From Candidatus Omnitrophota bacterium (GTDB lineage Bacteria > Omnitrophota > Gorgyraeia > Aquiviventales > Aquiviventaceae), in assembly GCA_023247195.1 (NCBI GenBank), contig JAHFGY010000005.1, positions 1 through 44,762 on the forward strand: a stretch of 44,762 bases of DNA, read 5' to 3'. The position numbers and the translations under genes were made by a program. The notes under the pieces were generated by a model. That model saw only the letters and a list, made by a program, of their open reading frames with translations, had not been told where the DNA came from and searched no databases. This document shows, piece by piece, positions 12,313 through 43,060 of this stretch. The first letter of the stretch is position 1, and each line of letters starts with the position of its first letter.

Positions 12313-12426
12313 ATGAAGGTTCGTGCATCAGTGAAGCGTATCTGCAACAAGTGCAAGGTCGTCCGGCGGCAAGGGATCGTGCGCATTATCTGCGAGAATC
12401 CAAAGCACAAGCAACGCCAAGGCTGA
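12313..12426 (+). CDS. rpmJ: 50S ribosomal protein L36
   Basis: Absent from the ORF track because it is under 60 aa. Hand translation gives [37 protein letters not shown], then TGA. Confidence 0.93.
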
Positions 12427-14023: not shown

Positions 14024-14039
14024 TCTCACGGAGGGGTGG

Positions 14040-15047: not shown

Positions 15048-15064
15048 TCGGAGCGGAATGAGCC

Positions 15065-15580: not shown

Positions 15581-16769
15581 GCTTGTCATGCCGCTGACCG
15601 TCTCCCGACGGCTGCAGCGGGTGGAAAGCTCACCGACCCTGGCCTTGGCGGCAAAAGCCAAGGCGCTTGCCAAGGCAGGCAAAGCGGTTGTCGACTTCAC
15701 GGCCGGTGAACCCGACTTTCCAACCCCTTCCGCAGCCAAACAAGCCGGAATCCGGGCGATCGAGTCGAATAAGACTCGGTATACCGCTGTCGAAGGGATT
15801 CCCGAGCTGCGCCAGGCCATTGCCGATCGCACGAATCGGCAATGCGGCACGAAGTTCGAAGCGGCCAATGTGCTGGTGAGCTGCGGCGCCAAGCATTCGC
15901 TCTACAACGTCTTTCAGGCGTTGTGCGAGCCGGGTGACGAAGTCCTCATCATCAGCCCTTATTGGGTCAGCTATCCCCCCATGGCCTGGCTGGCCGGCGC
16001 AACGCCCGTCATCGTCGAATCCACCGAGCAAGACGGTTTCCAGCCGGACGTCGATGCCCTGCGCTCGCGCATCACCTCGCGCACGCGCGGTATTGTTCTG
16101 AACAGCCCCAGCAACCCCACGGGCGCGGTCATCAGCGCCGAGCGTCTGCGAGCCATTGCCAAACTCGCCTCCGAGCGCGGCCTTTTTGTCATCAGCGACG
16201 AGATCTATGCGGACCTGGTTTATGCGCCGGCGCAAGCGACATCGATCCTCCAAGTTCAGCCGGATAGCGTTGATCGAACGATTCTCGTAAACGGCGTTTC
16301 AAAGAGCTACAGCATGACCGGCTGGCGAATCGGGTACGCTGTGGGCCCGAAAGAGGCGATCGAAGCCATGGCGCGCGTGCAGAGCCATTCCACTTCCAAC
16401 CCCACGACCATCAGCCAATACGCCGCGTTAGAGGCATTGACCGGCTCCCAAGAGCCGGTGGCTGAAATGCGCCGCCACTTTCAGCGCAGGCGCGACTTGA
16501 TCGTGACCGGGCTCAATCACCTCGATCCGCTGAGGTGCTTTAAAGCGGACGGCGCTTTCTATGCTTGGTGCGATGTCCGCGGTACCGGCCTCGGATCCGA
16601 GGTTGTGGCCGCACGCTGGCTGGATGAATCGCTCATAGCCACCGTGCCTGGCGACGGTTTTGGCGCGCCGGGTTGGATCCGCCTCAGTTTTGCCACATCG
16701 GATGAAACGATTCAGGAAGGCTTGAGCCGCATCCAGCGCTGGCTGGGCGGCCTAAAGGCAGGGAAGTGA
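15573..16769 (+). CDS. Class I PLP-dependent aminotransferase, aspartate-aminotransferase-like
   Basis: The ATG at 15573 overlaps the rplQ stop (alternative start at 15588). Contains [13 protein letters not shown] and [17 protein letters not shown] (PLP lysine context). Confidence 0.88.
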
Positions 16770-22894: not shown

Positions 22895-22994
22895 ATGGAA
22901 AGGGCAAACTCACGGTGACGTGAGGGCGCAAAGCTTCTGGATCCCGATGGAAGCCCTTCGCTGAGCGAAGGGGTCGGGATGGCCGGGCTGCCGA
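22895..22994 (+). promoter_or_regulatory. c-di-GMP-I (GEMM-I) riboswitch aptamer, copy 1
   Basis: Reads AGGGCAAAC, then hairpin CUCACG-GUGA-CGUGAG (GNRA loop), then GGCGCAAAGC, a second helix, and GGGCUGCCGA. It matches the conserved blocks of the Vibrio Vc2 aptamer as I recall them, and matches copy 2 at 30282. Confidence 0.8.
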
Positions 22995-23014
22995 AGAGGT
23001 GGCCCGGATTTTTT
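22983..23014 (+). terminator. Intrinsic terminator (expression platform of riboswitch 1)
   Basis: The stem CCGGGCUGCC / GGUGGCCCGG has 10 bp including 2 G-U pairs, with loop GAAGA, followed by A and U6. The 5' arm reuses the aptamer 3' strand. Confidence 0.7.
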
Positions 23015-23142: not shown

Positions 23143-24699
23143 GTGAGCGCAAGAGAACCGCGTGTAGGGCTTTTTGTTGAGCCGCGCCAGATCTGCCTGG
23201 CTGAAGTAGCCAGCGGGCCGGGCGGGCCGCGTATTGTCCGCTCAGCTGAGGCTGAAGTACCCGAAGGGGGCGCGGCTGATCCGGCTTTGATGGCTGAGGT
23301 CCTGCGCCAGGTTGTGATGAAGTCAGGCATTCGCTCACGCCAGGTGGTGGTTGCGCTCGGAAGCTTGGATGCGATCATCCGCCGCTTCAGCATGCCGCTT
23401 CTTCCCCGCAAGGAATGGCCCAATTCAGTGCGATTTGAGGCGCAAAAGTACCTTCCATTCGATGTCCGCGGCCTTTATACCGATGCCGATAGCGTTCCGG
23501 ACAAGGCCAAGAAGCAGCTGGACGTGGTCTTTGTCGCCGCAAAGAAGGAGAGCGTTACCGGTATCCTCGAATTGCTTCGGCGGGTTGACCTGGAAGCGAC
23601 CGCCATTGAGCCGGTTGCCTGCGCGCTCCATCGGCTCTTACAGCTCGGGGTCAAAAAGGAAGCACCCGGTGTTTCGACCTACCTGCATGTTGACCGGGAA
23701 TCGGGAATGACTCTGCTGATTGCCAATCCCAAGTCGCTCTGGATGACTCGTGAAGGCGCGCTCGCAGCCGTGTCAACAGCCGAACCTGTTTCAAACGGCG
23801 TGGATCCGGAAACAATTGCTTCTGAGATCCGGCTGTCGCTGGACTATTTCGGCAAGCATTATCGGGAGGAAACGGTCAGCAAGATCATCCTTTTTGAGAA
23901 TCCCGCCAGCGCGGGAATGCAGAGCGTACTGACCCGGTTGCTCGGGCTTCCAGTCGAAACGCGCGATCCGATGAAGCTCTTGCGAGGTCATGTGCAGCCG
24001 ACATTGGGCATGGTCGGCGCGGTCGGTGCAGGGCTGCGGGGCCTGAATGTAGGCTCAGCCAAGCGCTTCAACCTGGTTCCCGAAGAGGCGGTATCAACGG
24101 CCCGTTCGATGCCGTCGCTCTCGCGCGAGGAACTGCTGCAGCAAATCGTGTTTTCGGCTTTGACGGGATTGGTGCTCGGAGCGGCTGCGGCCGGCTTGGC
24201 TTATTTCCCGGTGCGGTCTGAAGTGAACGCGGCGCAGCAGGAAGTTCAGGCTGTCCGGCAATCTTATCCGCCGTTGCAATCGAATCCCGTGCCGGCCACG
24301 GTCGAGGAAGCCGAAGCGCTCGCTGACAAGTTGGCTAAAGAGGCCAAATTCCTTTCCGAGGTCATGACAAACCGGATAGTTCTTACCCACAAGCTGAGCG
24401 AGCTGGCTAAGGCGACCCCCTCGGGCGTTTGGCTGACGGCTTTTGAATATGAAGACCGCCGGCTTGCCGACGCCGTTGGACCCAGAAATCTCCGAATGGA
24501 AGGCGCTGTTTACTTGGAAGACGGCAAGGATCATGTAGTAGTGATCAATCGATTCGCGTCCGCGCTCCGGGACAATGCTGTCCTTATGGGCGGTCTGGAT
24601 AGTCTGAAGATCGAGGGCATTCGCAAAGCGGTGATCCGTGAGGCGGACGTCACGACATTCACTCTTAAAGCCGAAGCCACACAGCCGCCGGTGAAATAG
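23143..24699 (+). CDS. Type IV filament assembly protein, natural PilM-PilN fusion (GspL-like architecture)
   Basis: 518 aa, with a GTG start 6 nt after GGAGG. The first ~300 aa are PilM-like. They are followed by RFNLVPEE (PilN N-terminal INLLP-type motif), one TM helix (IVFSALTGLVLGAAAAGLAYF), a coiled coil and a C-terminal periplasmic domain. Confidence 0.85.
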   Translation: MSAREPRVGLFVEPRQICLAEVASGPGGPRIVRSAEAEVPEGGAADPALMAEVLRQVVMKSGIRSRQVVVALGSLDAIIRRFSMPLLPRKEWPNSVRFEAQKYLPFDVRGLYTDADSVPDKAKKQLDVVFVAAKKESVTGILELLRRVDLEATAIEPVACALHRLLQLGVKKEAPGVSTYLHVDRESGMTLLIANPKSLWMTREGALAAVSTAEPVSNGVDPETIASEIRLSLDYFGKHYREETVSKIILFENPASAGMQSVLTRLLGLPVETRDPMKLLRGHVQPTLGMVGAVGAGLRGLNVGSAKRFNLVPEEAVSTARSMPSLSREELLQQIVFSALTGLVLGAAAAGLAYFPVRSEVNAAQQEVQAVRQSYPPLQSNPVPATVEEAEALADKLAKEAKFLSEVMTNRIVLTHKLSELAKATPSGVWLTAFEYEDRRLADAVGPRNLRMEGAVYLEDGKDHVVVINRFASALRDNAVLMGGLDSLKIEGIRKAVIREADVTTFTLKAEATQPPVK

Positions 24700-24708
24700 A
24701 GGCTCGCC

Positions 24709-25248
24709 ATGGGATCTTCGCCGAAGATGCAGCCACTCGCGATCACGCTGGGCCTAGCTTTGGCCGCGTTCATGGTTGGACGCAACATGGTGATTCAGCC
24801 GGCAAAATCCATGGTCATGCGATTGAAAATGGAAAAACAAACGGAAGAACGCAAGGGCCAGGCGATCGGCCGCATCGCGGACTTTGAGCGGCAGATCAAC
24901 GCTGGGCAGTCGGGCCTTTTGCCAAAAACAGACGCTTCAGCGTTTATTGAAATGCTGAACCGGATGGCCGAAGACTCGGGCGTCAGCCTGACCTCCGTGA
25001 CCCCGTTTCCCGTGGAGAAGATGGGGTCGTATGCCAGGCTTCCGATCCAGGTTGAAATGCGCTGCAGCTACCACCAGGTGGGCCGTTTTCTGAGCAAACT
25101 GGAGAGCTCGTCCACATTTATCAAAGTGGAAGTGTTGCAGATCCGGCAGCCTCCGGAAGTGCGCACCGCGGAGTCGACTGAGCCGGAAGAGTCAAAGTTA
25201 TCGGTCGTCATTCTCCTTAACGGACTTTCACGGGCTGAAGCGGGATGA
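24709..25248 (+). CDS. pilO: PilO/GspM-like inner-membrane assembly protein
   Basis: 179 aa with an N-terminal TM helix, a coiled coil, and a C-terminal SYARLPIQVEMRCSYHQVGRFLSKLES pattern typical of PilO. Confidence 0.75.
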   Translation: MGSSPKMQPLAITLGLALAAFMVGRNMVIQPAKSMVMRLKMEKQTEERKGQAIGRIADFERQINAGQSGLLPKTDASAFIEMLNRMAEDSGVSLTSVTPFPVEKMGSYARLPIQVEMRCSYHQVGRFLSKLESSSTFIKVEVLQIRQPPEVRTAESTEPEESKLSVVILLNGLSRAEAG

Positions 25249-25628
25249 AAAAAGCATTCGTTGTGTGGGTAGCATTATTCACGCTGTCTGCAGCGGTCGT
25301 CTCGGCCGCCGCGGCTACGGTTGAATATACGGGGGCAACGAACCGGGATCCGTTCAAGAGCCAGTTGCCCGCCGTCAAACAGCCCGCCAAGCCGGACGAG
25401 AAGACTTCGGCCAAGGACGAGCCCGTGACAGTGGATTTCCTCACGGTGACCGGCGTGGTCTGGGATTCGGAAAAGCCTCAAGCGATTATCAACGGGAAAG
25501 TCGTATCCATCGGGGGACAGGTTTCAGGCGCCGAACTCGTTGCGATCAACGAGGCAGGCGTTCAGGTCCGCTACAAGGGCAAGCTGTTCGTTCTGAAAGC
25601 GGGCAACAAGAAGGGTGGTCAGCCATGA
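25245..25628 (+). CDS. PilP-like periplasmic protein
   Basis: 127 aa with a signal peptide and an RDPF motif. The C-terminal beta-rich segment (VTGVVWDSEKPQAIINGKVVSIGGQV) resembles a PilP/GspC HR domain. The gene overlaps both neighbours. Confidence 0.6.
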   Translation: MKKAFVVWVALFTLSAAVVSAAAATVEYTGATNRDPFKSQLPAVKQPAKPDEKTSAKDEPVTVDFLTVTGVVWDSEKPQAIINGKVVSIGGQVSGAELVAINEAGVQVRYKGKLFVLKAGNKKGGQP

Positions 25629-27217
25629 AGCGCATTCGCCTTGGGTGGTTGGGTGCAGTCAGCATCTTATTGAGCCTGGCGAGTATCGCTTCGGAAGGGT
25701 TTGCCGCCGAGGTAGCCCAAGCTGTCCCTACTTCTTCTCGCACCGTCTCGATGGATTTCGAGGACGCGGACTTGAAGCTTGTCTTAAAGGTGCTGTCGCA
25801 ACAGGCTGGTATGAACTTCGTGGCTAGTGAGGACGCCGAAGCCAAGAAAGTCACGGTTTTCCTGAGCAATGTGTCGGTGAACGATGCCATCGATGCGATC
25901 ATTCGGGCGAACGGGCTTCGCTACGAGATGAAAGCCTCGAGCAATATCTTCATGGTTTACAGCTCGGACGAGCAAGGCCCGCTTCAAACCCGTGTCTTTA
26001 CGCTGAAGTTCCTGCGGCTGTCGATTTCATCGATCGACGTCGGCGGACAGAGCGTGTCGCGCGAGCTTCTGTCAAAAGAAGACATCGCGGCTCTATCGAG
26101 CGGAGGATCGGGCGGTTCTGCCGGCGCCAACCCCGGGGCAGCGGCGGAGGACAAGAAAGACAGCGGGAAGGAAGATAAGCTCACCGCTGAACGAGGCATC
26201 GACAAGCTTGTGGCAAGCCTCCTTTCGGATAAGGGCAAGATAGCGGTGGATGTGAATTCCAACAGCCTGATCGTCACGGATTTGCCGGACAAGCTGGCTG
26301 TTATTGAGACCGTTTTGAATCGCCTGGACGCTCCGCCGAAGCAAGTCATGCTGGAAGCGCAACTGCTTGAAACGAACGCGGGCCTTTTAGATGACAGGGG
26401 ACTGGACTGGGGAGGGGCGGACGGTGCCTTGGCGCGCATTGCCGGGCCCGCACGCGATACCCACTTTCCGTTCATGGGCGAGCGCTTGCACTCGCCGTTC
26501 CGCGCTAAGTCTGCCCAGGATAGCACCATAGGCTCATTGTTTACCTACGGCACCGTGGACTTTCAGAACTTCGCGGCAACATTGAGGTTCATCACCAGCC
26601 AGACCGACACGAAGATCCTGGCCCAGCCGCGGGTACTGACCATGAACAACGAAGCGGCTATCATCAAGCTCGTGACGAATACCGCCATCGCCCAAACGTC
26701 GACCATTACCGCGGCCCAATCCATCGCTACGCTCACTACGGGTGAGGCGCAAAGGCAGGAGACCGGAATCGTCTTAAAAATGACGCCACAGGTGAACACC
26801 GATGACTCGATCACGCTGTTCCTTGAGCCTTCTGTCACCACTGTCGCGACATCGGCATTTTTTCCCGATGACTTTTTGGATCCGACCACTCGGACCGTCC
26901 GCACCTCGGTCAGGGTTTTGCCAGGAGAGACGCTTGTTATCGGCGGCCTGGTCGATACGTCGAACGTTGGCACCGATAAGAAAGTTCCTTTTCTTGGCGA
27001 TGTACCGGTCATGGGCCGGTTGTTCAAGCTGAAGAGCAAGGATAATTCTGAAAGAGAACTCGTGATCTTCGTCACGCCCACACTTGTGCGCCGCTTTGAG
27101 AACGATTGGCGGCGCGAACAGAGCCCGGTCGCGGTTCGCGAACGCGAAATCGAGCAGGCGCTGCAATCGGTGTCGGATAGGCAGGTTCCCGATGGTCCGG
27201 CCAGTGTCGGCGAATAA
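25625..27217 (+). CDS. pilQ: Secretin (PilQ/GspD family), short form
   Basis: 530 aa with a signal peptide, an N0/STN-like domain, and a Gly/Ser-rich linker. The secretin core is LVIGGLVDTS...KVPFLGDVPVMGRLFK...ELVIFVTPTLV. No AMIN domains are evident. Confidence 0.9.
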   Translation: MKRIRLGWLGAVSILLSLASIASEGFAAEVAQAVPTSSRTVSMDFEDADLKLVLKVLSQQAGMNFVASEDAEAKKVTVFLSNVSVNDAIDAIIRANGLRYEMKASSNIFMVYSSDEQGPLQTRVFTLKFLRLSISSIDVGGQSVSRELLSKEDIAALSSGGSGGSAGANPGAAAEDKKDSGKEDKLTAERGIDKLVASLLSDKGKIAVDVNSNSLIVTDLPDKLAVIETVLNRLDAPPKQVMLEAQLLETNAGLLDDRGLDWGGADGALARIAGPARDTHFPFMGERLHSPFRAKSAQDSTIGSLFTYGTVDFQNFAATLRFITSQTDTKILAQPRVLTMNNEAAIIKLVTNTAIAQTSTITAAQSIATLTTGEAQRQETGIVLKMTPQVNTDDSITLFLEPSVTTVATSAFFPDDFLDPTTRTVRTSVRVLPGETLVIGGLVDTSNVGTDKKVPFLGDVPVMGRLFKLKSKDNSERELVIFVTPTLVRRFENDWRREQSPVAVREREIEQALQSVSDRQVPDGPASVGE

Positions 27218-27242
27218 GCCGAAAGCCATCTAGGGAGAAGGC

Positions 27243-28964
27243 ATGGCGACTCCCAAAGTCAAACTGGGCGATTTGCTTGTTTCCGCGGGACTCATCAGTC
27301 CCGAGCAGCTCTCGCGCGCTTTGGACGTTCAGAAGAAGAATCCGAGTGAAACGCTCGGAAGCGTGCTGCTGGGCTTGGGCGCTGTTTCGGAATCGGATCT
27401 TGTTCGTACGTTGAGCAAACAGCTCAACATCCCGTACGCCACGCGCGAGAAAGGCCTGCTCAGTCCGGCAAAGGATCAGGGGCTTGAACAGGTCCTCCCG
27501 GAAGAGATAGCGCGCCGCTACTGCGTGTTGCCGGTGTCCCGTCACCTGAATTCACTGACCGTCGCTTTAACAGACCCCTTGGATCTGCTGGTCGTGGACA
27601 ACATCAGGCGCGTGACAGGCTGCCAGATCAATCCCATCATCGCGCCGCGCAGCGACATTATGCTGAGCATCAGCGAGCTTTACGGCGAAGGGGGAATGCT
27701 CAAGGAAGCTGTCGCCGCTTCTTATCAAGAGTCGGATACCATCAGTTTCGACGGCAAGGCTGACGAACACCTTTCCCTGGATGATCTGGTCAGCAGCGCT
27801 GAAAAGCCGCCTGTTGTGAAGCTCACGGACCTCATCATCCGGCAGGCCATCAAGCAGCGCGCGAGCGATATTCACATCGAGCCGTTGCCGAGCGCTATCA
27901 GCATCCGGTATCGCATTGACGGCGTGCTGCACGAAATCGCTCCTCCGGATGCTCATATGCTGCTCCCGCTTGTTTCGCGCATCAAGATTCTCTCCAAGAT
28001 GGATATCGCGGAGAAGCGTCTGCCCCAAGACGGCAGTTTCCGGGCCACGATTGAGAACCGGCTCATCGACTTCCGCGTGTCCACGATTCCGGCGATGTCC
28101 GGAGAAAAGGTCGTGCTGCGCATCCTGGATCGCTCAGCCGTCTCTCTTGATCTCAACACGTTGGGTTTTGAGAAGGAAGAATTGGAGACCTTTCGCGAGG
28201 CGATTCATCGCCCTTATGGAATGATCTTGATCACCGGACCTACCGGAAGCGGCAAGACAACGACCCTGTACGCGGCGCTGAATGAAATAAAGAGCGTGGA
28301 GAAAAATATCACAACGATCGAAGATCCGGTCGAGTACCAGATCCCGGGGATTAACCAAGTTCAGGTGAAACCGGCCATTGGGTTGACGTTCGCGACCGGC
28401 CTCCGCGCATTCCTGCGTCAAGATCCGAATATCATTCTGGTGGGTGAGACACGCGATCTGGAAACCGCGCAGATCTGCGTGCGCGCGGCGCTCACCGGCC
28501 ATCTGGTTTTCACCACGCTGCACACGAACGACGCGCCAACAGCTATCTCCCGGATGATCGATATCGGCATTGAACCTTATTTTGTCACATCGTCATTGCT
28601 GCTGGTCGTGGCGCAGCGGTTGGTGCGGCAATTATGCGAAAAATGTCGCGAGCCCTACCGGCCCGATCCGCTCAAGCTGCCCAAGGACTTTCCAATGCCG
28701 CCGAACGGCATGCTCTTTCGCGCCAAAGGATGCGACGCCTGCTCCAATACCGGTTTTCTCGGCAGACGGGCTATTTATGAGATGATGCCCATGACGGAAG
28801 AGCTCTCTCATTTGAGCGCCACGCGAGCCCCAACCGCCGAGCTGCGGCGGGCGGCTCAAGCCGGCGGGATGCTGACTCTTCAAGAGGCCGGATTCCGCAA
28901 AGTTGCGGCGGGGCGCACGACCATCGAGGAAGTTCTGCGGGTCACCATGGCCAGCGGGACCTGA
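27243..28964 (+). CDS. pilB: Type IV filament assembly ATPase (PilB/GspE/MshE family) with MshEN-type N-terminal domain
   Basis: 573 aa with Walker A GPTGSGKTT, Walker B IILVGETRD, and a tetracysteine (CEKC...CDAC). The N-terminus carries two MshEN c-di-GMP-binding motifs. Confidence 0.93.
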   Translation: MATPKVKLGDLLVSAGLISPEQLSRALDVQKKNPSETLGSVLLGLGAVSESDLVRTLSKQLNIPYATREKGLLSPAKDQGLEQVLPEEIARRYCVLPVSRHLNSLTVALTDPLDLLVVDNIRRVTGCQINPIIAPRSDIMLSISELYGEGGMLKEAVAASYQESDTISFDGKADEHLSLDDLVSSAEKPPVVKLTDLIIRQAIKQRASDIHIEPLPSAISIRYRIDGVLHEIAPPDAHMLLPLVSRIKILSKMDIAEKRLPQDGSFRATIENRLIDFRVSTIPAMSGEKVVLRILDRSAVSLDLNTLGFEKEELETFREAIHRPYGMILITGPTGSGKTTTLYAALNEIKSVEKNITTIEDPVEYQIPGINQVQVKPAIGLTFATGLRAFLRQDPNIILVGETRDLETAQICVRAALTGHLVFTTLHTNDAPTAISRMIDIGIEPYFVTSSLLLVVAQRLVRQLCEKCREPYRPDPLKLPKDFPMPPNGMLFRAKGCDACSNTGFLGRRAIYEMMPMTEELSHLSATRAPTAELRRAAQAGGMLTLQEAGFRKVAAGRTTIEEVLRVTMASGT

Positions 28965-28979
28965 TAAGAAAGCTTTCCC

Positions 28980-30197
28980 ATGCCACGATTTACCTACAGC
29001 GCGCGTCAGCCGGATGGACGAACGGTCACCGGCGAGCAGGAAGCGGCCAGCGAATATGAGGCGCTTCGGATCCTGCAGCAGCAAGGCTTTATCGTTACCC
29101 GCGTCCAAGAGGGAAAGTTGTCTGAATTGCCGACGAACCTGAACAACGTCCGGCGCCACAAGCGCATCCGCTCGCGCGATATGATCATGTACATCCGGCA
29201 GATGGCGACGCTACTAAGCTCGAATGTGCCGCTGCTGCGAGCGTTGGATGTGATCCGAAGCCAAACCGAGAGCCAGCACTTGGCGGATGTCATGGAAAAA
29301 ATGGCATCCGACATCCGCGCCGGCGCCACGTTCAAAGACGCCATGGGCCGGCATCCAAGGGTATTTCCCGTTCTTTGGTCTTTCCTTATTGATGCGGGAG
29401 AGGTGAGCGGCAAGCTGCCTTTGGTGCTTGAACAATTGGCCCTGTATGTTGAAACGAGCCAGCGCATCAAAACCAAATTCATCACCGCGATGTTCTACCC
29501 GGCGATCCTCACGCTGGTCGCGTCAGGAGCGGTGTCCGTGTTCTTGTTGTTTGTCATTCCCATCTTTAAAAACCTGTTCGACAGCTTTGGCGCAAAGCTT
29601 CCGCTGCTCACGCGGATGGTGATAGCCACAAGCGACGGGCTTCGGCACTATTTCATATTCGTTCTACTCGTGGGTTTTGCGGTCGGATTCTTCCTCAATC
29701 GATTCGTGCGCACGCCGTCCGGTAGGGCGACCGCGGACCGGTTGGTCCTGCGCGTGCCGTTCGTCGGCGCTTTCTTCAAAGATATTATCCTGGCCCGTGT
29801 CGCCAGCAGTCTTTATATCCTGATCAAGAGCGGCGTGAATATCCTTCGCGGCCTGGAAATCACAGCGAAAAGCTCCGGCAATATCGTCTTCGAGGATGCG
29901 CTGTTGCGCGTGCGGGACGAAGTACAGCATGGAAGGCCGATCGCGGTTTCGCTGGCAAAGCATCCCATTTTCCCCGGCATGTTGGTGCAGATGGTTATGA
30001 TCGGAGAAGAGAGCGGCCGTCTGGAAGAGCTTTTGGCGCGCGTTGCCGCCTACTATGAGGAGCAGGTGGACGTCTTTGTCAACCGGCTCAGCACTGTGCT
30101 TGAGCCCCTGATCCTCGTGGTCATGGGGGGCATTGTCGGCGTGCTGGTGATCGCTATGTTCCTGCCTATTTTCCGGCTTAGCTCTGTTATCCGCTAA
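28980..30197 (+). CDS. pilC: Platform protein PilC/GspF
   Basis: 405 aa with two T2SSF-type repeats and hydrophobic helices. Sits in the canonical position after the ATPase. Confidence 0.92.
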   Translation: MPRFTYSARQPDGRTVTGEQEAASEYEALRILQQQGFIVTRVQEGKLSELPTNLNNVRRHKRIRSRDMIMYIRQMATLLSSNVPLLRALDVIRSQTESQHLADVMEKMASDIRAGATFKDAMGRHPRVFPVLWSFLIDAGEVSGKLPLVLEQLALYVETSQRIKTKFITAMFYPAILTLVASGAVSVFLLFVIPIFKNLFDSFGAKLPLLTRMVIATSDGLRHYFIFVLLVGFAVGFFLNRFVRTPSGRATADRLVLRVPFVGAFFKDIILARVASSLYILIKSGVNILRGLEITAKSSGNIVFEDALLRVRDEVQHGRPIAVSLAKHPIFPGMLVQMVMIGEESGRLEELLARVAAYYEEQVDVFVNRLSTVLEPLILVVMGGIVGVLVIAMFLPIFRLSSVIR

Positions 30198-30202
30198 TCG
30201 CC

Positions 30203-30232
30203 TTGACAATCTTCTCTTACCTCAGCCATACT
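30203..30232 (+). promoter_or_regulatory. Candidate promoter for riboswitch 2 (TTGACA-N18-CATACT)
   Basis: The -35 is a perfect match. The element lies about 50 nt upstream of the aptamer. Confidence 0.35.
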
Positions 30233-30281
30233 TAGTGTGTCTGGGCTCCTTGATAAACACCTGATGCGGATGACATTGAAG

Positions 30282-30357
30282 TGACAAGGGCAAACTCACG
30301 GCAACGTGAGGACGCAAAGCCTCCGGCCCCGGGAGATCGGGGTAGCTGGGCTGCCGA
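30282..30357 (+). promoter_or_regulatory. c-di-GMP-I (GEMM-I) riboswitch aptamer, copy 2
   Basis: Reads AAGGGCAAAC, then hairpin CUCACG-GCAA-CGUGAG (GNRA loop), then GACGCAAAGCCUCCGGCC, the inner helix CCCCG/CGGGG, and GGGCUGCCGA. This is very close to the Vc2 blocks GGGCAAAC / GACGCAAAGCCUCCGGCC / CCGA. Confidence 0.85.
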
Positions 30358-30378
30358 TTACGGCAGCCCTTCTTGTTT
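30348..30378 (+). terminator. Intrinsic terminator (expression platform of riboswitch 2)
   Basis: GGGCUGCCG-AUUA-CGGCAGCCC forms a perfect 9-bp stem, followed by UUCUUGUUU. The 5' arm is the aptamer 3' strand. Confidence 0.75.
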
Positions 30379-30477
30379 ATAGGTAGATAAAAACATTGAC
30401 AAACACATGAGACAAGATTATTTAGAAGAGGGTACTGGCGCTTGCAAGACAGCGGTTAACGAGCGGGGGGGTGCGAA

Positions 30478-30891
30478 ATGAGCAAGCAAGATCTAAGAGG
30501 GGTTCTTAGCGGTCGCGGTGGTTTCACCTTGATGGAACTCATGATCGTCGGCATTATCTTGGCAGTGGTGGCTGGATTGGCCGTTCCCGGCTATATCTCC
30601 GCGGTTGAAAAATCCCGCAAGCAAGAGGCGCTGGAAACCCTGGGTGCTCTGCGGAATTCAGAGATTCGCTTTTTCGCCGGCAATGCCACTTACACTCCTA
30701 CGTTTACGCAGTTGGATTTTGATCCGACGAAAGCAACAGGCACGCCGTACTTTACCTACACTGCGGCGGGAGGCGCGACGTTTACCGGAACCGCAACGCG
30801 CAACGCAACGAAATTTAGCGCCTTGAGCGGCTGTACCGCGGGGTATACACTTACGATCACCGACCAGGGTGTTATTACGCAGGGTTGCTGA
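30478..30891 (+). CDS. Type IV pilin (candidate major subunit)
   Basis: 137 aa. The prepilin leader ends G|FTLMELMIVGIILAVVAGLAVPGY with Glu5. A C-terminal Cys pair (SGC...QGC) is present. Confidence 0.9.
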   Translation: MSKQDLRGVLSGRGGFTLMELMIVGIILAVVAGLAVPGYISAVEKSRKQEALETLGALRNSEIRFFAGNATYTPTFTQLDFDPTKATGTPYFTYTAAGGATFTGTATRNATKFSALSGCTAGYTLTITDQGVITQGC

Positions 30892-30943
30892 TTTACTCCA
30901 AGATCACCGCGATATGTAGCGCGGTCGGGGATTTCGGTCGAGG

Positions 30944-30983
30944 TGTGCCAGCCGCGCGATGTGTGGCTGGCACAACTCTTTTC
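30944..30983 (+). terminator. Terminator/attenuator-like hairpin after the first pilin gene
   Basis: TGTGCCAGCC / GGCTGGCACA forms a perfect 10-bp stem with an 11-nt loop, followed by the U-rich ACUCUUUUC. This is the typical arrangement after major pilin genes. Confidence 0.5.
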
Positions 30984-31008
30984 AACAAGACAGCGGGGAG
31001 CGGCGCGG

Positions 31009-31425
31009 ATGACGGCAATGGTTCGAAACGATCGACGCGGTATGACGCTGATGGAGGTCATGATCGTCGTCATTGTCATGGCTGTGGTCGCGGCGCTGGC
31101 TGTCCCTGGCTACCGGCAAACAGTCGAACAGGCGCGATCGAGCGAAGGTACGACGAATCTGAATATTATTCTAATGGGGGAAAAGCTCTACAAATCCGAC
31201 AATAGCACGTTTATCGGCGGGTTGGCTTGCGCGAGCACCGGAACCCCGACTACATGTACCGCCATCAATACCGCGCTCAATACCGACATAACCGCTGAGT
31301 TTTACAACTTAGCCATTGGCGGCGCGACTAAAGCCACGTTCTCGGCAACGGCAACCCGAAGGGGCGGCACGAAAGTCTTTACGATCGATCAGACGGGAAC
31401 CATCACTTCAGCAGGCACGTACTAG
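31009..31425 (+). CDS. Type IV pilin / pseudopilin, second subunit
   Basis: The ATG at 31009 follows GGGGAG. The leader is MTAMVRNDRRG|MTLMEVMIVVIVMAVVAALAVPGY with Glu5. The ORF-track start at 30943 lies inside the hairpin and was not used. Confidence 0.88.
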   Translation: MTAMVRNDRRGMTLMEVMIVVIVMAVVAALAVPGYRQTVEQARSSEGTTNLNIILMGEKLYKSDNSTFIGGLACASTGTPTTCTAINTALNTDITAEFYNLAIGGATKATFSATATRRGGTKVFTIDQTGTITSAGTY

Positions 31426-31426
31426 C

Positions 31427-32443
31427 ATGCGACATGGGCTCCGCCTCTCAGTTCTTCTATTTGTCGCCCTCGCTGCGGCCGGGACGGTTCGAGCCGAAGA
31501 TGTCACCCTCTCCACAGAGCATTCCTCTCCTACCGGGCGATACCGCACCGTTAATGCGAACGAGCGGCTCGATGTCGGCAGCGAGGCTACTTCCGGCGAC
31601 GCGGACTTATTTGGCAGCCTCGAGCTTGAAAAGGCAACGGGCGACCAGACACTGGCGGCATGGACTTCCGGCGGAAGGATGACGATCGAGGGAGGCCTCA
31701 ATATCCGGGACGCTGCGGGCGCTACCTCGTTGCTGTTTGTTGACGCGGCCACGAACCGGGTCGGAATCGGGAATTCGAATCCGCAGATGATGCTGGATGT
31801 AAGCGGACCGGTTCGGGCGATCAATATCCACTCCTACGCGGACGCGAGCACCGGCGATGCCGGTTTCTTTGAGCTCTTCGCGGCCAGCGATGCGTTTGAG
31901 ACTTTTGTTAATGAGCATGTTTCCGTGGCTTGCCATGCAGCCAATGCGCCGCCAGGGGTAAACGATTTTGATCTGCTTCCGCTCTATATCGACGGCAATC
32001 CACTTGTGCTCCAGGGAGAGCTTAAGCCGGGTGTCGTCGAAGCAGGCGGCCACGGCCAAGTAGTGATCAAGGGAGATCCCGTCCCGGGATTGGCCAATGT
32101 CGGACTAGTCGTTGGATACCAGAACTATGGCAAAGCGGCCGCCAACGTGGTCATGCCGAGTTCGCTTGAATTCAAGAAGGATGTCCAGCCGCTGGCACCA
32201 CAGGATTATCAAAGCATCCTTAAGAGCTTGGACACGTTCACGGTTGCTCGGTATCACTATTTAGAGGATTCTCCCGGTGCACCGCTTCAATTCGGTTTCA
32301 TTATGGAAGAAGCTCCCGAACAGGTGCGGTTGGAAGGGGGCATTAGCCTGTACGGGAGCTATGGCTATCTATACGCGGCGGCCAAAGCGCTCAAGGCCGA
32401 CCAAGACATGCTGAAAGCCCGCCTTGAGGCGCTTAAGAAATGA
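31427..32443 (+). CDS. Secreted tail-fibre-like protein 1 with C-terminal intramolecular-chaperone (Peptidase_S74-like) domain
   Basis: The ATG at 31427 gives a 338-aa protein with signal peptide ...GTVRA|EDVTLST. It has a NRVGIGNSNPQMMLDVSG fibre-repeat-like motif. The C-terminal domain runs from Ser245 (nt 32159): SSLEFKKDVQPL...FGFIMEEAPEQV...coiled coil. Confidence 0.8.
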   Translation: MRHGLRLSVLLFVALAAAGTVRAEDVTLSTEHSSPTGRYRTVNANERLDVGSEATSGDADLFGSLELEKATGDQTLAAWTSGGRMTIEGGLNIRDAAGATSLLFVDAATNRVGIGNSNPQMMLDVSGPVRAINIHSYADASTGDAGFFELFAASDAFETFVNEHVSVACHAANAPPGVNDFDLLPLYIDGNPLVLQGELKPGVVEAGGHGQVVIKGDPVPGLANVGLVVGYQNYGKAAANVVMPSSLEFKKDVQPLAPQDYQSILKSLDTFTVARYHYLEDSPGAPLQFGFIMEEAPEQVRLEGGISLYGSYGYLYAAAKALKADQDMLKARLEALKK

Positions 32444-33495
32444 TCCGGCGCTTGGGATTTTTCGGCGCGGCTTTCTTAGGGCTGTGCTCTTTGGCGGTTG
32501 CGGATGATGTGACGCTGACCTCTGCTTATCCGACCCCATATGGGGAATACGGGGACTTGACGATCCAGGATTCGGTCACCGTGGGCAAGAAGGCAACCGC
32601 AACCGGCGCCGCGACCATTTACGGTAACCTCGCGATTGCCGGCCCGGAAGATATCTCCGTGTGGGGGCCGCTCATTGTGGATCCCGCGGCCATTATCGCC
32701 GACTCGTCGCGGCCCGGCTTCTTCCGAGCGGATCCGAACAGCGTGGCTACGCTAAGAGTCGAAACCGACACGATTCCATCCCCACCCTGCGCGGCGCAAG
32801 ATTGGTACTGCCAATCGTACTGGGTCAGCATCGGAAAAACGAATAGCACAGCGCAATCTGAACTGGATGTGAACGGCCCGATTTACGCGGGCGAATTTCG
32901 AGCCGCGGACGGCCCGCTCGAGCAAACGCTCTTTTTAGAGACACGGGCCGATAACACAACCGCTCCGCCAAGGACATGGGGACAGCTCCGGGCCCAGGAT
33001 CCGGCCGGATGGGCCGGCCCCAGGAGCGTGCTGCGGGTCTTTGGCCAAAAAAAGATTGTTCTCAACCGGAACAGTCCCGGAAAAGTCCTTGTGGGCACCA
33101 ATACCGTTCCTGCGCAGTGCGCCGGTCCGAGCTTCAAATTTTGCGTGTCAAATACGCTTCAAACACGCATGAACACCCCGGCCCCCTATAGCTCTCGGGC
33201 TTTTAAGCGGGATATCGCTCCGCTGAGCGCTTCAGATTACCAGCATGTGGCCGACTGGCTCGGCCAATCCAATGCTATCTATTTCCGGTACAAGGAAGAT
33301 TCATCCGACGAGCCCTTAAGGCTGGGGCTGGTCGCGGAACAAGCTCCGCCGGAGATCCTGAGTGATTCCAAGCAGAATATCGCATTTGCCCAGCTCGTTG
33401 GGGCGCTGTACGCCGCAGCCAAATACCTCCATGAGCAGAACCAAGAATTGGAGGCGGAAGTGAGCCGCCTCGAGGCGGAGGTCAACGCTCCATGA
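32440..33495 (+). CDS. Secreted tail-fibre-like protein 2 with C-terminal S74-like chaperone domain
   Basis: 351 aa, joined to paralog 1 by an ATGA overlap. Signal peptide is ...SLAVA|DDVTLTSAYPTPYGEY. The C-terminal domain runs from nt 33190: SSRAFKRDIAPL...LGLVAEQAPPEI...coiled coil. Confidence 0.8.
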   Translation: MIRRLGFFGAAFLGLCSLAVADDVTLTSAYPTPYGEYGDLTIQDSVTVGKKATATGAATIYGNLAIAGPEDISVWGPLIVDPAAIIADSSRPGFFRADPNSVATLRVETDTIPSPPCAAQDWYCQSYWVSIGKTNSTAQSELDVNGPIYAGEFRAADGPLEQTLFLETRADNTTAPPRTWGQLRAQDPAGWAGPRSVLRVFGQKKIVLNRNSPGKVLVGTNTVPAQCAGPSFKFCVSNTLQTRMNTPAPYSSRAFKRDIAPLSASDYQHVADWLGQSNAIYFRYKEDSSDEPLRLGLVAEQAPPEILSDSKQNIAFAQLVGALYAAAKYLHEQNQELEAEVSRLEAEVNAP

Positions 33496-34700
33496 AACGG
33501 GCCAACCGCTGCGCACTCTTGGTATTCATGCTGCTTGCGGGCCGCACCGCCATCGCGCTCGCAGACGACGTCACGCTGACGACCTACCTGCCGTCTCCGG
33601 ATTGGGAAGACTACAAACGGCTGCAAGCAAGAGGTCAATTCACGATTGACGATGCGGCCGCGACGGCCGGCAGCCTGCAGATCTTCGGCAACTTGGACGT
33701 ATGGAATGGGTCGGTGACTGTCACGGGGGATGCTAATCCGATTCACTTCGGCCGGAACTGGGGACCGTACAGTACAGCTGGCACTCCCATTGATGGATTG
33801 CGCGTGCAGCCGGCCGCAAATTGTGTGTCCATTGGCACGAATACCTGCAATCCAGGAACATCGAAACTTAAGGTGTTCACCGCAATCCGCGGCAACGGCC
33901 TTTTTGTAAAGCCGCAAGGTCCTGAGCCAAATTATCTTTTCGCCAACGCCACGTGGACCGGAACACCGTGCCTCTTTGCTAGCCCCGCGAACCCTGATGG
34001 CACGCGTCGCGGATTTCTAGGGGCGCGGCGGATGATTGGCACGGGGCCCGCGCCAGCTGTGGATCCCTTTGCGCCGATGCGGCTGGAAGCCAGGCTTATT
34101 GAAATCGGCGATTGGCGACGCGCAGATATGGGCCTTCCCGTAATTCCTTGTCCGCCGAATCCGCCGACGCGATTCAAATGGTGCTCGACTCCTTACACCG
34201 GTCACCCGGACTATGGAGACACGACGCAAGGCATCTTGGTCGGCGTGGATACGATCCCTAATCCGGGGCAAGAGGATATTGTGCCGGCGGCAACCCCGCT
34301 ATGGTACCAGAATGTCGTCGTGCTCCAGGTTGGTGATCCTGCTAACCCGATGGATGCTTACTTTGGCAACAATATTCAAGCTTTTCCATCCTCGAGAGCC
34401 TTTAAAAAGGACATCGTGCCGTTGACCGCCGCGGAAATGAGCGGGTACTTGACTCAAGCCGCCAAGACGGACGTAGCGTATTACCACTATATTGGAGATC
34501 CGCCGGATCGCGCTCTGCGAATAGGTCTGATCGCGGAGGATGCTCCGAAAGAATTCAGCGACGGGAAATCGATTCACCTTTTCCAAGCGGCCGCCTATTT
34601 GACGGCCAGCATGAAGGCGCTCAAGATGGAAAACGATGCATTGCGGGCGCGCATCGAAGTGTTGGAAGCGAAGAAGGCAGCGCTGCGAAAGGCGCGGTAA
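33492..34700 (+). CDS. Secreted tail-fibre-like protein 3 with C-terminal S74-like chaperone domain
   Basis: 402 aa, joined to paralog 2 by an ATGA overlap. Signal peptide is ...AIALA|DDVTLTTYLPSP. The C-terminal domain runs from nt 34389: SSRAFKKDIVPL...IGLIAEDAPKEF...coiled coil. Confidence 0.8.
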   Translation: MKRANRCALLVFMLLAGRTAIALADDVTLTTYLPSPDWEDYKRLQARGQFTIDDAAATAGSLQIFGNLDVWNGSVTVTGDANPIHFGRNWGPYSTAGTPIDGLRVQPAANCVSIGTNTCNPGTSKLKVFTAIRGNGLFVKPQGPEPNYLFANATWTGTPCLFASPANPDGTRRGFLGARRMIGTGPAPAVDPFAPMRLEARLIEIGDWRRADMGLPVIPCPPNPPTRFKWCSTPYTGHPDYGDTTQGILVGVDTIPNPGQEDIVPAATPLWYQNVVVLQVGDPANPMDAYFGNNIQAFPSSRAFKKDIVPLTAAEMSGYLTQAAKTDVAYYHYIGDPPDRALRIGLIAEDAPKEFSDGKSIHLFQAAAYLTASMKALKMENDALRARIEVLEAKKAALRKAR

Positions 34701-34708
34701 ACCGAGCG

Positions 34709-35053
34709 ATGCGGCGGAATAGGCATGGATTCACTTTGCTGGAAGTTCTGATCGCCACGATTATCCTTGCGGGAATGGGGGCTATCCTTTTCGGTAGCTT
34801 TTTGACCGCTCGCCGATGGGTCGTGCAAGCGACGAGCGGCGTACCGATGAATCTGGCGCGCGAACGGTTGGATGAGCTTCAGATGTCCGTTCGCATGGAT
34901 ACCTGGAACACGGGGCAGATGAAGGTCTCGGCGCCGGCGTGGACCGCGGAGCCGGCCATTGTTTTGGACGGTGTTAGCTACACGCGCCGCACCCGGGTAA
35001 GTACCGTGCCGGGCATGCAGTACCGAAAAGTCGAGGCAAAAGTCGAATGGTAG
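34709..35053 (+). CDS. Minor pilin / pseudopilin (prepilin-type N-terminus)
   Basis: 114 aa: MRRNRHG|FTLLEVLIATIILAGMG with Glu5. Confidence 0.85.
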   Translation: MRRNRHGFTLLEVLIATIILAGMGAILFGSFLTARRWVVQATSGVPMNLARERLDELQMSVRMDTWNTGQMKVSAPAWTAEPAIVLDGVSYTRRTRVSTVPGMQYRKVEAKVEW

Positions 35054-35622
35054 CCCCCCGGCTCCGTCTTAACAAAGGGGTATCTCTCACCGAGCTGTTG
35101 CTCGCCACGATTCTCCTTTCCGTGATTTTCTTGGCGTGCATCTCGCTCTACCTCAGCGCCATGAATTTTCTAAAAGCGCAGAAAGACCGGTGGGCAAGAA
35201 TCGATTCCTTCCTAGCGATGGAGCACGTGGCACGGCGCATTGTCTTAGGCAACGACATTCTCGTGAATCCGGCGCAGAAATGGGTCAAAGTGCGGTGGGA
35301 TTACCAGGGCGACTACAACGTGCCTAACCGCACGCCGGAAAACTTTGCCGACGACCAATGGCTCAAATACGGCATCATCGGCAATGCGCTGCGTTGGCGG
35401 GTGGATGCGACGTCGGCGGCAAACGTCACCGCTGGGGATGCGGAGGTTCAAGCAGGCCTGTTTGTTGACGCCACGGCATCATTCTTTCTCTTGAATAACC
35501 CTCCGGGGCCTGCAGGGCCTCCCACGGTCGACGTGCGCTTGCGCACGCGCATCCAGCAAGCGCCCGATGTTTATATGACGCAGCACACCGGATTGATCGT
35601 GCGCGGACGGGCGGTGGACTGA
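35047..35622 (+). CDS. Minor pilin / pseudopilin (PilW/GspJ-like)
   Basis: 191 aa: ...RLNKG|VSLTELLLATILLSVIFL with Glu5. Overlaps the previous gene. Confidence 0.8.
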   Translation: MVAPRLRLNKGVSLTELLLATILLSVIFLACISLYLSAMNFLKAQKDRWARIDSFLAMEHVARRIVLGNDILVNPAQKWVKVRWDYQGDYNVPNRTPENFADDQWLKYGIIGNALRWRVDATSAANVTAGDAEVQAGLFVDATASFFLLNNPPGPAGPPTVDVRLRTRIQQAPDVYMTQHTGLIVRGRAVD

Positions 35623-36044
35623 TGACCAATCGCCGACTCAACGAACAAGGCGCAGCGCTGACTGTTGCCATCATGACGGTGCTGCTGCTGTCAATCCTCG
35701 GCGTCACGGTTTTGACGCTTGCGTATAATCAGGCCCGGTTAACGAACGCGGCGGTAGGGGGCCGGACAAAGGCTTTCTATCGGGCGCAGGCCGGGATGGT
35801 GGATGGGCAAGAGAAGATTCATGTAGGAAGCTGCCCGGCCTGCCAAAAGGTGGGATGCGCGAGCTGCGACTCGAGCTGTCCGACCTTTGGGGCGGCATGT
35901 CCTTACGAGAACCCAGGTCTGGATCCCAAGGCCTATTCGCTGGATGTCGACGGCGACAAAGTAATGGATACAACGGTCGACATTGGGCCGGTCGACGCGA
36001 AAACAAACCTCAGGGATATTGTGTCGCTGGGACTGCAGAACTAG
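35622..36044 (+). CDS. PilX/GspK-like minor pilin with Cys-rich insert
   Basis: 140 aa. The N-terminus NEQG|AALTVAIMTVLLLSILG lacks Glu5, as in PilX-N/GspK-type subunits. It has a six-Cys cluster and a DVDGD motif. Confidence 0.7.
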   Translation: MTNRRLNEQGAALTVAIMTVLLLSILGVTVLTLAYNQARLTNAAVGGRTKAFYRAQAGMVDGQEKIHVGSCPACQKVGCASCDSSCPTFGAACPYENPGLDPKAYSLDVDGDKVMDTTVDIGPVDAKTNLRDIVSLGLQN

Positions 36045-39545: not shown

Positions 39546-40262
39546 ATGCCGCGACAAGTGAAAAAAGCAAAGAATAATCAGACAGGTTTCCTGAGCTTGA
39601 TCTCGCACAAGCTGCATACGCCGCTTGCGGTCGTCCATTTGAAGGCTTCCATGCTGCTGGACGAAACGGACGGCGATCTGAACGAAAAGCAGCGGCGATC
39701 GCTGCAGGAAATCATGCGATACGCGCAGGAGCTGCGCTGGTCGATCGAGAAATTGCTCGTTTTCTCGGACATGGACCGCGTAGGGCCTTCAGCAGCGCCG
39801 CGTCCGGTGGATCTATCGAGCTATGTGCCATGGGGGGTGGAGCGCATCGTAAGGGAAGTGGGGAGCAGCCGCGTGCGGCTCGCGATCGGGAAAGTGATGC
39901 CCGGAATCAAACTGCGGATGAACGAAGTCTATATCGACTTAATTCTGCGGAACCTGATCGAGAATGCCGTGAAGTTTTGCGACAAGCCGGAAGTCCTAAT
40001 CGCGGTCGCACTGGAAAAACGGGGCGGAGATGCGCTACTGAGCATCGCAGACAATGGCCCGGGTGTTACCCCGGCGCAGCGGAAGAGGATATTCGAGCCG
40101 TTTTACCAAATCGAGGCCAACGCGAGCGGGCAGGTGCAAGGCATCGGGCTTGGCCTGGCGCTCGTGAAGCGGTTGGCTCAAGCGCACGGCGGCCGGGTTG
40201 AACTTCAGTCCAAACGCGGCAAAGGCACGACGATCTTGGTCAGACTCCCAGCGCTACCGTGA
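39546..40262 (+). CDS. Histidine kinase core (DHp + HATPase_c) without recognisable sensor domain
   Basis: ATG at 39546 (the ORF-track TTG at 39531 lies inside the terminator tail). H-box is FLSLISHKLHTPL, N-box is LIENAVKF, and G-boxes are DNGPGV and GIGLGLALV. Confidence 0.85.
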   Translation: MPRQVKKAKNNQTGFLSLISHKLHTPLAVVHLKASMLLDETDGDLNEKQRRSLQEIMRYAQELRWSIEKLLVFSDMDRVGPSAAPRPVDLSSYVPWGVERIVREVGSSRVRLAIGKVMPGIKLRMNEVYIDLILRNLIENAVKFCDKPEVLIAVALEKRGGDALLSIADNGPGVTPAQRKRIFEPFYQIEANASGQVQGIGLGLALVKRLAQAHGGRVELQSKRGKGTTILVRLPALP

Positions 40263-42993: not shown

Positions 42994-43060
42994 ACGCGGA
43001 CAAATATTCGCAGAAGTCTGCGCTCTGGTAGAATGGCGCAATAACAAAGGAGAATCGGCA

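Follow-up and report, generated by a model that had tools for sequence, protein, structure and literature searches.

What does a type IV pilus locus do with three tail-fibre-like proteins encoded among its minor pilins? The question is raised by a stretch of 44,762 nucleotides (nt) from a Candidatus Omnitrophota bacterium (GenBank assembly GCA_023247195.1, contig JAHFGY010000005.1), referred to as the window at its full length, which is chromosomal DNA of ~59% G+C. Fourteen genes, g1 to g14, lie there on the + strand at 23143-36044. An earlier annotation made from the letters alone, the sequence-only reading, had seen in these co-directional genes a dedicated fibre-handling machine. Its gene content was borne out by Pfam and NCBIfam, which back the labels in Table 1, as were the genes it had reported missing in cis, but the dedication of the machine was not. 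The machine is ordinary, and the new part is the set of motif-sharing tail-fibre-like proteins inside the minor-pilin operon.

The fibre proteins g9 to g11 (paralogues A, B and C) share one layout: a Sec signal, a conserved segment, a beta-rich middle and a C-terminal domain of ~100 amino acids (aa). The conserved segment, A|DDVTLTTYYPSPxGxYxxL, lies two residues past the predicted cleavage site, the middle region carries a 'VGIG...P...L.V.G' element, and the C-terminal domain reads SS-x3-K-x-D-I ... G-x-I-A-E-E-x-P ... and closes with a coiled coil. A profile of the C-terminal domain built from 26 fibres matched the chaperone domain of 8hqz, an L-shaped tail fibre of the T5 type (E 1e-8), with Ser and Lys(+5) in register, and also matched the MYRF ICA domain 7dc3 and the tail fibre 8jov (the whole set ranging from E 1e-8 to 1.5e-3); PHROG tail-fibre families match the same region. 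Within SS-x3-K-x-D, the Lys and the Ser right before x3 are invariant in the aligned fibre sequences. The earlier Ser, which has the Lys at +5 and aligns with the Ser of the T5-type fibre, is kept in at least 90% and is Cys in two. The Asp, Gly, Glu and Pro of the domain are invariant as well.

Peptidase_S74 and other intramolecular chaperone domains drive the trimerisation of a beta-rich fibre and then self-cleave at Ser. That g9-g11 are exported by Sec and that each ends in an S74-type chaperone is strongly supported by these sequence features, and by analogy the three proteins would trimerise and cleave themselves. They resemble the S74 proteins of phages (fibres, spikes and endosialidases) and MYRF in the Ser-Lys(+5) dyad, the GxIAEE element and the terminal coiled coil. 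They differ in being cellular, Sec-exported products of a pilus operon, rather than part of a virion or of a contractile-injection-system module. The Peptidase_S74 literature searched concerned phages, contractile injection systems and viruses only, and an arrangement with fibres in a pilus operon was not described in it. g11 also carries an insertion of ~45 aa containing Cys (…CPPNPPTRFKWCSTPYTGHPDYGDT…; aa ~205-250, window 34100-34240), which is common to its orthologues in the related loci L001 and L002 and is lacking in paralogues A and B and in the L003 member of group C.

The trio is conserved as a unit. In 11 full trios (the window, L001, L002, L003, L004, L005, L007, L008, L163, L170 and L171) a g8-like pilin gene is followed by three fibre genes and these by three minor-pilin genes, and a partial contig, L006, has two fibre genes in full and the C-terminal end of one more. 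Among complete or near-complete relatives, GCA_022072175.1 has the trio. L163 (an Omnitrophica metagenome-assembled genome, MAG), L170 and L171 were found via the ATPase alone. Because the complete order was found again in independent genomes and metagenomes, the arrangement is not due to chance. A neighbour-joining tree of 33 fibres resolved three clean orthologue groups, A, B and C, with matching internal branching, which suggests that the genes were triplicated once, long ago, and have diverged together since. In the window, L001 and L002 the fibre genes run A-B-C, the other full trios have B-A-C, and the ATPases of the trio lineages are 63-81% identical to that of the window (81% in L001). 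The claim that the fibre genes are not passengers therefore stands, the trio being kept in 11/11 full trios as co-diverging orthologue groups. An exhaustive fibre profile search gave 91 matches at E<1e-30. Word-indexed protein searches, with g11 and with a 26-sequence profile, returned four proteins each (five distinct) and missed known paralogues, so that they provide no census. One scan of genome contigs showed no cultured organism with the trio.

In a search of 5.8 billion proteins, the nearest named relatives of the window's ATPase (58-66% identity) were almost all from Candidatus Omnitrophota/Omnitrophica MAGs. Some related MAGs carry the labels Planctomycetia or Eisenbacteria; since the closest named ATPases come from Omnitrophota, such taxon labels may be unreliable. 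In the tree, the fibres of L171 (JGI metagenome 3300015360) are practically the same as those of L008 (NCBI MAG 'uncultured Planctomycetia'), indicating near-identical populations assembled independently.

Ten loci sampled through the ATPase (L001 and L163-L171) bear on whether the machine exists for the fibres. L163-L171 have the common order PilMN, PilO, PilP, secretin, PilB, PilC, pilins. The fibre trio is present in L001, L163, L170 and L171. One different Sec protein lies directly 3' of the three minor pilins in L166 and L167, no fibre gene is found in L164 (complete genome CP070837.1), L165 (Ca. Gorgyraea atricola) or L169, and the pilin operon of L168 is cut short. The fibreless and the single-protein loci are likewise from Omnitrophota (ATPase identity 58-65%). 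As orthologous loci occur both with and without fibre genes, the machine is not dedicated to fibres, and the corresponding claim of the sequence-only reading falls with the fibreless loci. The single proteins of L166 and L167 open after the signal peptide with the N-terminal motif of the fibres (A|EDVTVTTYYPSPAGVY and A|EEVEITAYYPSPYGNY). L015 (an Omnitrophota MAG) has, besides a PilX-like gene and two minor pilins, a single S74 fibre of 658 aa with 'MSTYYPSP', and its 20-kb stretch shows no ATPase or secretin in the ~7 kb upstream or the ~10 kb downstream of this module. The arrangements in L166, L167 and L015 indicate that what is constant is the association of minor pilins with motif-bearing proteins. 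L166 also has a PhdYeFM/ParE toxin-antitoxin pair inserted between pilB and pilC and a YfhO-family membrane protein between pilC and the pilins (11821-12383, 13958-15739).

By gene content and model scores, the machine is a type IVa-like pilus (T4aP) of a kind common in Candidatus Omnitrophota, with some traits of a type II secretion system (T2SS). The T4aP feature set is present (PilB-type ATPase, PilC, PilM/N/O/P, secretin and pilins), the deviations being the PilMN fusion, a weak PilP and the lack of AMIN. Against solved structures, the ATPase g5 scored ~520 bits with Geobacter PilB and 499 bits with Myxococcus PilB, full length, versus ~410 bits with GspE, and it matched positions 1-563 of the 564 of TIGR02538 PilB with 609 bits (equivalog cut-off 675). 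The T2SS models gave 586 bits for GspE (cut-off 630), 373 for GspF (424), 210 for GspD (351) and 56.6 for GspM (g2, NF040576; 60), so that all equivalog models are below their cut-offs, and GspC, at 15.8 bits versus 101.6, is effectively absent. For the secretin g4, the GspD and PilQ models tie at ~210 bits each. The likeness to a T2SS lies in the GspL-like PilMN, the GspM-like PilO, the GspF-like platform, the AMIN-less secretin, the G/H/I/J/K-like pilins, the lack of a retraction ATPase in cis and the co-encoded Sec-dependent proteins; the difference lies in an ATPase nearer PilB, no convincing GspC and one Secretin_N only. The sequence-only reading had judged the locus to be as compatible with a T2SS-like piston as with a pilus. 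The mixture of traits was confirmed, but the parity was not, given the ATPase scores.

Among the machine genes, g1 has one transmembrane (TM) segment at ~aa 335-355 and a GspL-like topology (cytoplasmic actin-like domain, TM, periplasmic domain). Its C-terminal half matches PilN weakly (18 bits), and the PilM-PilN fusion is supported by the orthologous halves in L164 (28.3 bits) and L165 (26.2 bits), which exceed the Pfam threshold of 22.8. We call g3 PilP-like by its size, its position between pilO and the secretin gene, kept in all related loci, and its weak T2SSB/T2SSC matches. The ATPase g5 scores above the cut-off of NCBIfam NF053729, a model of the MshE-type cyclic di-GMP (c-di-GMP) motif (59.9 bits; cut-off 38), and carries two tandem MshEN-type c-di-GMP-binding motifs at aa 7-60 (KLGDLLVSAGLISPEQLSRALDVQ ... 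LGSVLLGLGAVSESDLVRTL; window 27243-27420). It probably binds c-di-GMP, and the MshEN motif suggests that pilus assembly is under c-di-GMP control.

The absence of PilT, PilD and PilY1 in cis, as first read from the letters, was upheld by tblastn, by the polytopic open reading frames (ORFs) and by Pfam/NCBIfam. tblastn with the ATPase found no second T2SSE-family ATPase in the window, nor was one seen downstream in L005, L007 or L008 or in the genes called for L163-L171. The window has no polytopic membrane ORFs besides SecY and PilC, hence PilD is absent in cis, and no locus protein has a Pfam/NCBIfam match to the PilY1/PilC beta-propeller domain. Because pilT and pilD are often encoded elsewhere in T4aP organisms, their absence in cis weighs little; genes for a prepilin peptidase, and for a retraction ATPase if there is one, must lie beyond the window. 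Seymour et al. 2023 (PMC10066038) classed such clusters as T4aP in every Omnitrophota class, proposed a role in host-cell attachment and reported T4a pili as expressed in V. archaeovorus; Omnitrophota are there thought to be host-dependent nanobacteria attaching through T4a pili. The window shares its order of machine genes with L163-L171; tail-fibre-like or S74 genes in clusters of this kind go unmentioned in the paper.

The pilins fit a T4aP with a set of minor subunits around the fibres. The candidate major pilin g7 is of a type found in one to three copies in related loci. g8 is single-copy and always immediately 5' of the fibre trio, which by synteny in related loci is the FimU/GspH position. 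g12 has GspI/PilV-like size and position, weak XpsI/GspJ N-terminal matches and orthologues in all related loci, and g13 has GspJ/PilW-like size and position and conserved orthologues. g14, whose orthologues are also conserved, resembles PilX/GspK and is probably the tip-most subunit. A processing site G|(F/M/V)xLxE with Glu5, once ascribed to all five subunits, is present in g7, g8, g12 and g13, while g14 reads G|AALTV and lacks Glu5.

The tight packing of genes in two operons described by the sequence-only reading holds for most of the locus, where coordinates show gaps or overlaps of at most 25 nt. The exceptions are a gap of 280 nt that separates pilC from g7 and one of ~114 nt ahead of g8, each enclosing a terminator-like hairpin. 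The operon split may fall differently: g7 may be a transcription unit by itself, with g8-g14 as a second one. The hairpins and a promoter-like site are consensus matches only. The hairpins in both gaps suggest that g7 would be an abundant major pilin and g8-g14 a 'tip module' made at a lower level, and the hairpin directly after g7 is a possible attenuator between the two, a function proposed from its position. Fibre and minor-pilin genes overlap by 1-7 nt or are spaced by 8 nt, and the fibre genes appear translationally coupled to the minor-pilin genes. The longest ORFs of g8 and g9 are over-extended; 31006 and 31427 are realistic starts.

Two known systems suggest what the fibres could be for. 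In Pseudomonas and Myxococcus, PilY1 is a large Sec-dependent non-pilin encoded in the minor-pilin operon with FimU-PilVWX and thought to be a tip adhesin on the priming complex. The window likewise has Sec-dependent non-pilin genes inside its minor-pilin operon. It encodes, however, three paralogous fibres of ~340-400 aa predicted to be trimeric with a self-cleaving chaperone, whereas PilY1 is monomeric, and a chaperone-bearing trio with no PilY1 domain indicates a different fold and origin. In the second system, the mature N-terminal segment of TcpF/CofJ binds a trimeric tip minor pilin and is the export signal, and TcpF is trimeric when bound (PMC9565799, PMC10120004) and released after pilus-mediated export (PMC10120004). 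The fibres share with TcpF/CofJ a Sec signal, a conserved mature N-terminus and a gene in a pilus operon. They differ in that TcpF/CofJ belong to type IVb (T4b) pili with a single large homotrimeric minor pilin and a globular cargo, have no sequence similarity to the fibres, and contrast with the T4a-like machine of the window. The relation is one of functional analogy, not family membership, with fibre binding in the window no more than proposed.

Four points taken together, namely periplasmic trimeric fibres reliant on a chaperone domain, the apparent coupling of their genes to the minor-pilin genes, the conserved free N-terminus and the precedent of TcpF/CofJ, lead us to propose a mechanism in which the machine would polymerise g7 on a priming complex of g8, g12, g13 and g14. 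Fibre trimers would fold in the periplasm with the help of their chaperone domains, and their mature N-termini (DDVTLTTYYPSPxGxY) would dock on the g8/g12/g13/g14 complex, much as the N-terminal export signal of TcpF/CofJ binds the T4b tip minor pilin. As PilB drives the polymerisation of g7, the growing pilus would take the fibre out through the secretin, and the fibre, displayed at the pilus tip, would act as a receptor-binding adhesin, replacing PilY1 in function. We give about even odds to this reading, in which trimeric fibres are bound at their N-termini by the minor pilins of the tip, cross the secretin under the push of the pilus and are displayed at the tip. A broader version, to which we hold only tentatively, would make the motif (D/E)(D/E)xTLTTYYPSPYGxY a general docking or export signal of the T4a-like pilus for a repertoire of trimeric, tail-fibre-like receptor-binding proteins. 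Uncultivated nanobacteria of the Omnitrophota type would load them on the minor-pilin tip complex for recognition of host or prey, and in the clade of the window a heterotrimeric A:B:C fibre would match the three minor pilins.

The motif was followed beyond the locus with a degenerate DNA pattern for TTYYP[SA]P[YF]G. It had no match in 2.9 million viral contigs and at least 120 matches in metagenome contigs. In all of the matches listed (at least 120) the motif lies just past a Sec signal peptide; in these, as in all fibres, it starts 2-8 residues after the predicted cleavage site. The metagenome proteins are 71-572 aa long, many with GNVGIGT repeats, some with S74 ends and others with Cys-rich ends. 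Pilin genes lie directly 5' of the motif protein in L058, L062, L065, L105 and L136. The motif has no entry in NCBIfam or in the literature searched, and Pfam scans gave no N-terminal match in the motif proteins covered. Several further features of this family were recorded. Motif proteins often occur as tandem paralogue pairs in no pilus context (L045, L103, L127, L132, L135, L143), a subfamily of ~235 aa ('GSETLTLTTYYPAPYGGY…CCRF') was found again in many samples, and C-terminal domains are Cys-rich in L045, L048, L077 and L132. A Cys-rich secreted protein is encoded 3' of the motif fibre gene in two Omnitrophota MAGs (L015 10348-11385, L032 9347-9976). L108 (metagenome contig Ga0210019_1008099, 1-8104) encodes an MshEN-only protein, two tandem PilB-type ATPases, a response-regulator-like gene product and PilC, with a Sec protein 'A|ADEKITITTYYPSPYGSY' directly after PilC, where a pilin gene would be expected.

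Several observations weigh against tip display by the pilus. Among the 67 metagenome motif proteins with at least 1.5 kb of upstream sequence, four have a pilin gene within 3 kb upstream, versus a background of ~2%, so that gene neighbourhood does not tie the broad motif family to pili; we dropped a link of that kind for the family as a whole. Since most motif proteins lie away from pilin genes, the motif could have a role apart from pilus docking, for example in nucleating the trimer or in anchoring it to a different surface structure. Of the ten orthologous machines reached via the ATPase, three lack fibre genes in cis and yet keep the same minor pilins. g9-g11 scored 16.9-19.5 bits with PF13884 Peptidase_S74 ('chaperone of endosialidase'), under the threshold of 22, while PF13884 matches are recorded for orthologues in L003, L170 and L171. 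An AlphaFold model of the g9 monomer from a 7-sequence alignment reached pLDDT 36 and was not used. Moreover, the sequence fits tip display and release alike, and it fits A:B:C heterotrimers as well as it fits a separate homotrimer of each paralogue; shaft lengths within a locus, compared as a test of heterotrimers, are similar in some loci and different in others.

We next considered three other explanations of the fibre genes. The best placed, which we nonetheless regard as unlikely, is that the machine is T2SS-like, a short periplasmic pseudopilus piston whose cargo, the fibres, is released or bound at the cell surface. The GspM-scoring PilO, the GspF-scoring PilC, the GspL-like PilMN, the short AMIN-less secretin and the Glu5 pilins with one lacking Glu5 speak for it, as does the lack of a retraction ATPase in cis. 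As with T2SS substrates, the fibres depend on Sec and would reach their fold in the periplasm; the genes of many motif proteins are distant from pilin genes, as is usual for such substrates; and TcpF is released after its export by a pilus (PMC10120004). Against a piston stand the ATPase, some 520 bits to PilB versus 410 to GspE, the lack of a GspC with HR and PDZ domains (g3 has 127 aa and weak matches), and the position of the fibre genes inside the minor-pilin operon, apparently coupled to it, which is unusual for T2SS cargo. Omnitrophota clusters of this type have, in addition, been classed as T4aP, with T4a pili reported as expressed in V. archaeovorus (PMC10066038).

Less probable still, in our judgement distinctly so, is that the fibres are surface fibrils or adhesins that reach the surface by another route and share the operon through co-regulation of adhesion. 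The 4/67 metagenome motif proteins with a pilin gene close upstream, the existence of orthologous pilus loci without fibres and the wide occurrence of S74-type fibres in bacteria in no pilus context (L009-L042) would all suit this explanation. It has to contend with the placement between g8 and the first minor pilin (mp1), which is exact and invariant, with overlapping frames, in 11/11 full trios, and with the separate recruitment of different motif proteins to the same operon in L166, L167, L015 and L058; nor does the locus encode another export or anchoring component for a soluble periplasmic trimer. Finally, that decaying tail-fibre genes of a prophage were inserted by chance in a pilin operon is hardly credible and was rejected, for although the C-terminal domains match phage tail-fibre families (PHROGs, PDB), all three proteins have Sec signals and intact frames, the three orthologue groups are kept across lineages with ATPases of 63-81% identity, no other phage genes lie nearby and the motif is absent from the viral contigs.

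Table 1. Features of the window and of related loci. Positions refer to the window unless a locus is named.
Feature	Position	Strand	Evidence or remark
S10/spc/alpha ribosomal-protein cluster	1 to ~15.6 kb		L3, SecY, Adk, Map, S4, RpoA confirmed
ORF of 696 aa	8693-10783	-	antisense to SecY and Adk; no Pfam match
Housekeeping genes	~15.4-22.9 kb		aminotransferases, isocitrate/isopropylmalate dehydrogenase, radical SAM enzyme, MGDG-synthase-like protein, lipid A acyltransferase, GT2 glycosyltransferase
Terminator-like hairpin	22983..23007	+	10-bp stem, 8 GC pairs, then T-run; between GT2 gene and g1
g1, PilM-PilN fusion	23143..24699	+	PilM_2 E 1.8e-11; TIGR01175
g2, PilO/GspM-like	24709..25248	+	T2SSM_b 46 bits; PilO 39 bits
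g3, small periplasmic PilP-like protein, 127 aa	25245..25628	+	Sec signal; weak T2SSB/T2SSC matches, E ~3e-4
g4, secretin, 530 aa	25625..27217	+	Secretin 132.7 bits; one Secretin_N; STN; no AMIN
g5, PilB-type ATPase	27243..28964	+	T2SSE 455 bits; MshEN 62 bits
g6, PilC/GspF platform	28980..30197	+	T2SSF domain twice, 192.8 bits; GspF TIGR02120 373 bits
Promoter-like site	30203-30232		consensus match; inside gap after pilC
Terminator-like hairpin	30348..30369	+	inside 280-nt gap after pilC
g7, candidate major pilin (GG|FTLME)	30478..30891	+	mature ~122 aa; N_methyl and ComP_DUS fold matches
Hairpin	30944..30974	+	14-bp stem, T-rich tail; directly after g7
g8, second pilin (RG|MTLME)	31006..31425	+	N_methyl E 2.7e-7
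g9, fibre paralogue A	31427..32443	+	Sec signal; motif EDVTLSTEHSSPTGRY; beta-rich shaft; S74 domain from Ser245; Peptidase_S74 E 3.8e-3, under Pfam threshold; orthologue group A
g10, fibre paralogue B (A|DDVTLTSAYPTPYGEY)	32440..33495	+	S74 domain from Ser251; PHROG tail-fibre family phrog_18983, E 3e-8
g11, fibre paralogue C (A|DDVTLTTYLPSPDWEDY)	33492..34700	+	S74 domain from Ser300; Cys-containing insertion
g12, minor pilin (HG|FTLLE), 114 aa	34709..35053	+	N_methyl E 1.2e-6
g13, minor pilin (KG|VSLTE), 191 aa	35047..35622	+	weak N_methyl match
g14, pilin-like, PilX/GspK resemblance (QG|AALTV)	35622..36044	+	PilX_N E 5e-4, under threshold
PcRGLX/GH127-like protein, 929 aa	36010-38799	-	downstream of locus, convergent
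GH94-like protein	40240-43080	-	downstream of locus
DUF3332, histidine kinase, dienelactone hydrolase	3' of glycoside-hydrolase-like genes	+	
Module 3' of the minor pilins in relatives	L163 18315-21122; L170 19026-21713; L171 18844-21566; L008 12923-15645; L003 5118-6935; L004 6497-7279		

The surroundings of the locus are those of a bacterial chromosome (Table 1). The hairpin before g1 is the likely 5' boundary of the pilus locus. At the 3' side, most relatives have a module of a TM and coiled-coil protein of ~260 aa, a TPR protein and a protein of ~390-530 aa with a prepilin-like N-terminus. This module is missing there in the window, L001 and L002, where a convergent PcRGLX/GH127-like gene adjoins the pilus locus instead (67-92% identity in L001 and L002). 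The 696-aa ORF antisense to the SecY and Adk genes is in all likelihood spurious, one of the long ORFs that G+C-rich DNA is expected to contain.

For the most part it is unsolved how a T2SS or a type IV pilus machine recognises passengers that are not pilins, and the N-terminus of TcpF/CofJ, from type IVb systems, is the only defined linear signal. The N-terminal motif of the fibres, repeatedly recruited to a T4a-like minor-pilin operon, is a testable candidate for another. If the broader version of the proposal is true, no linear targeting signal of a T4a/T2SS-like machine would have been described before this one, and the pilus would be armed with an exchangeable phage-like receptor-binding fibre. 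The receptor-binding architecture of phages would then have been reused on a bacterial pilus, and tail-fibre-like proteins at its tip would give the Omnitrophota a concrete mechanism of host recognition.

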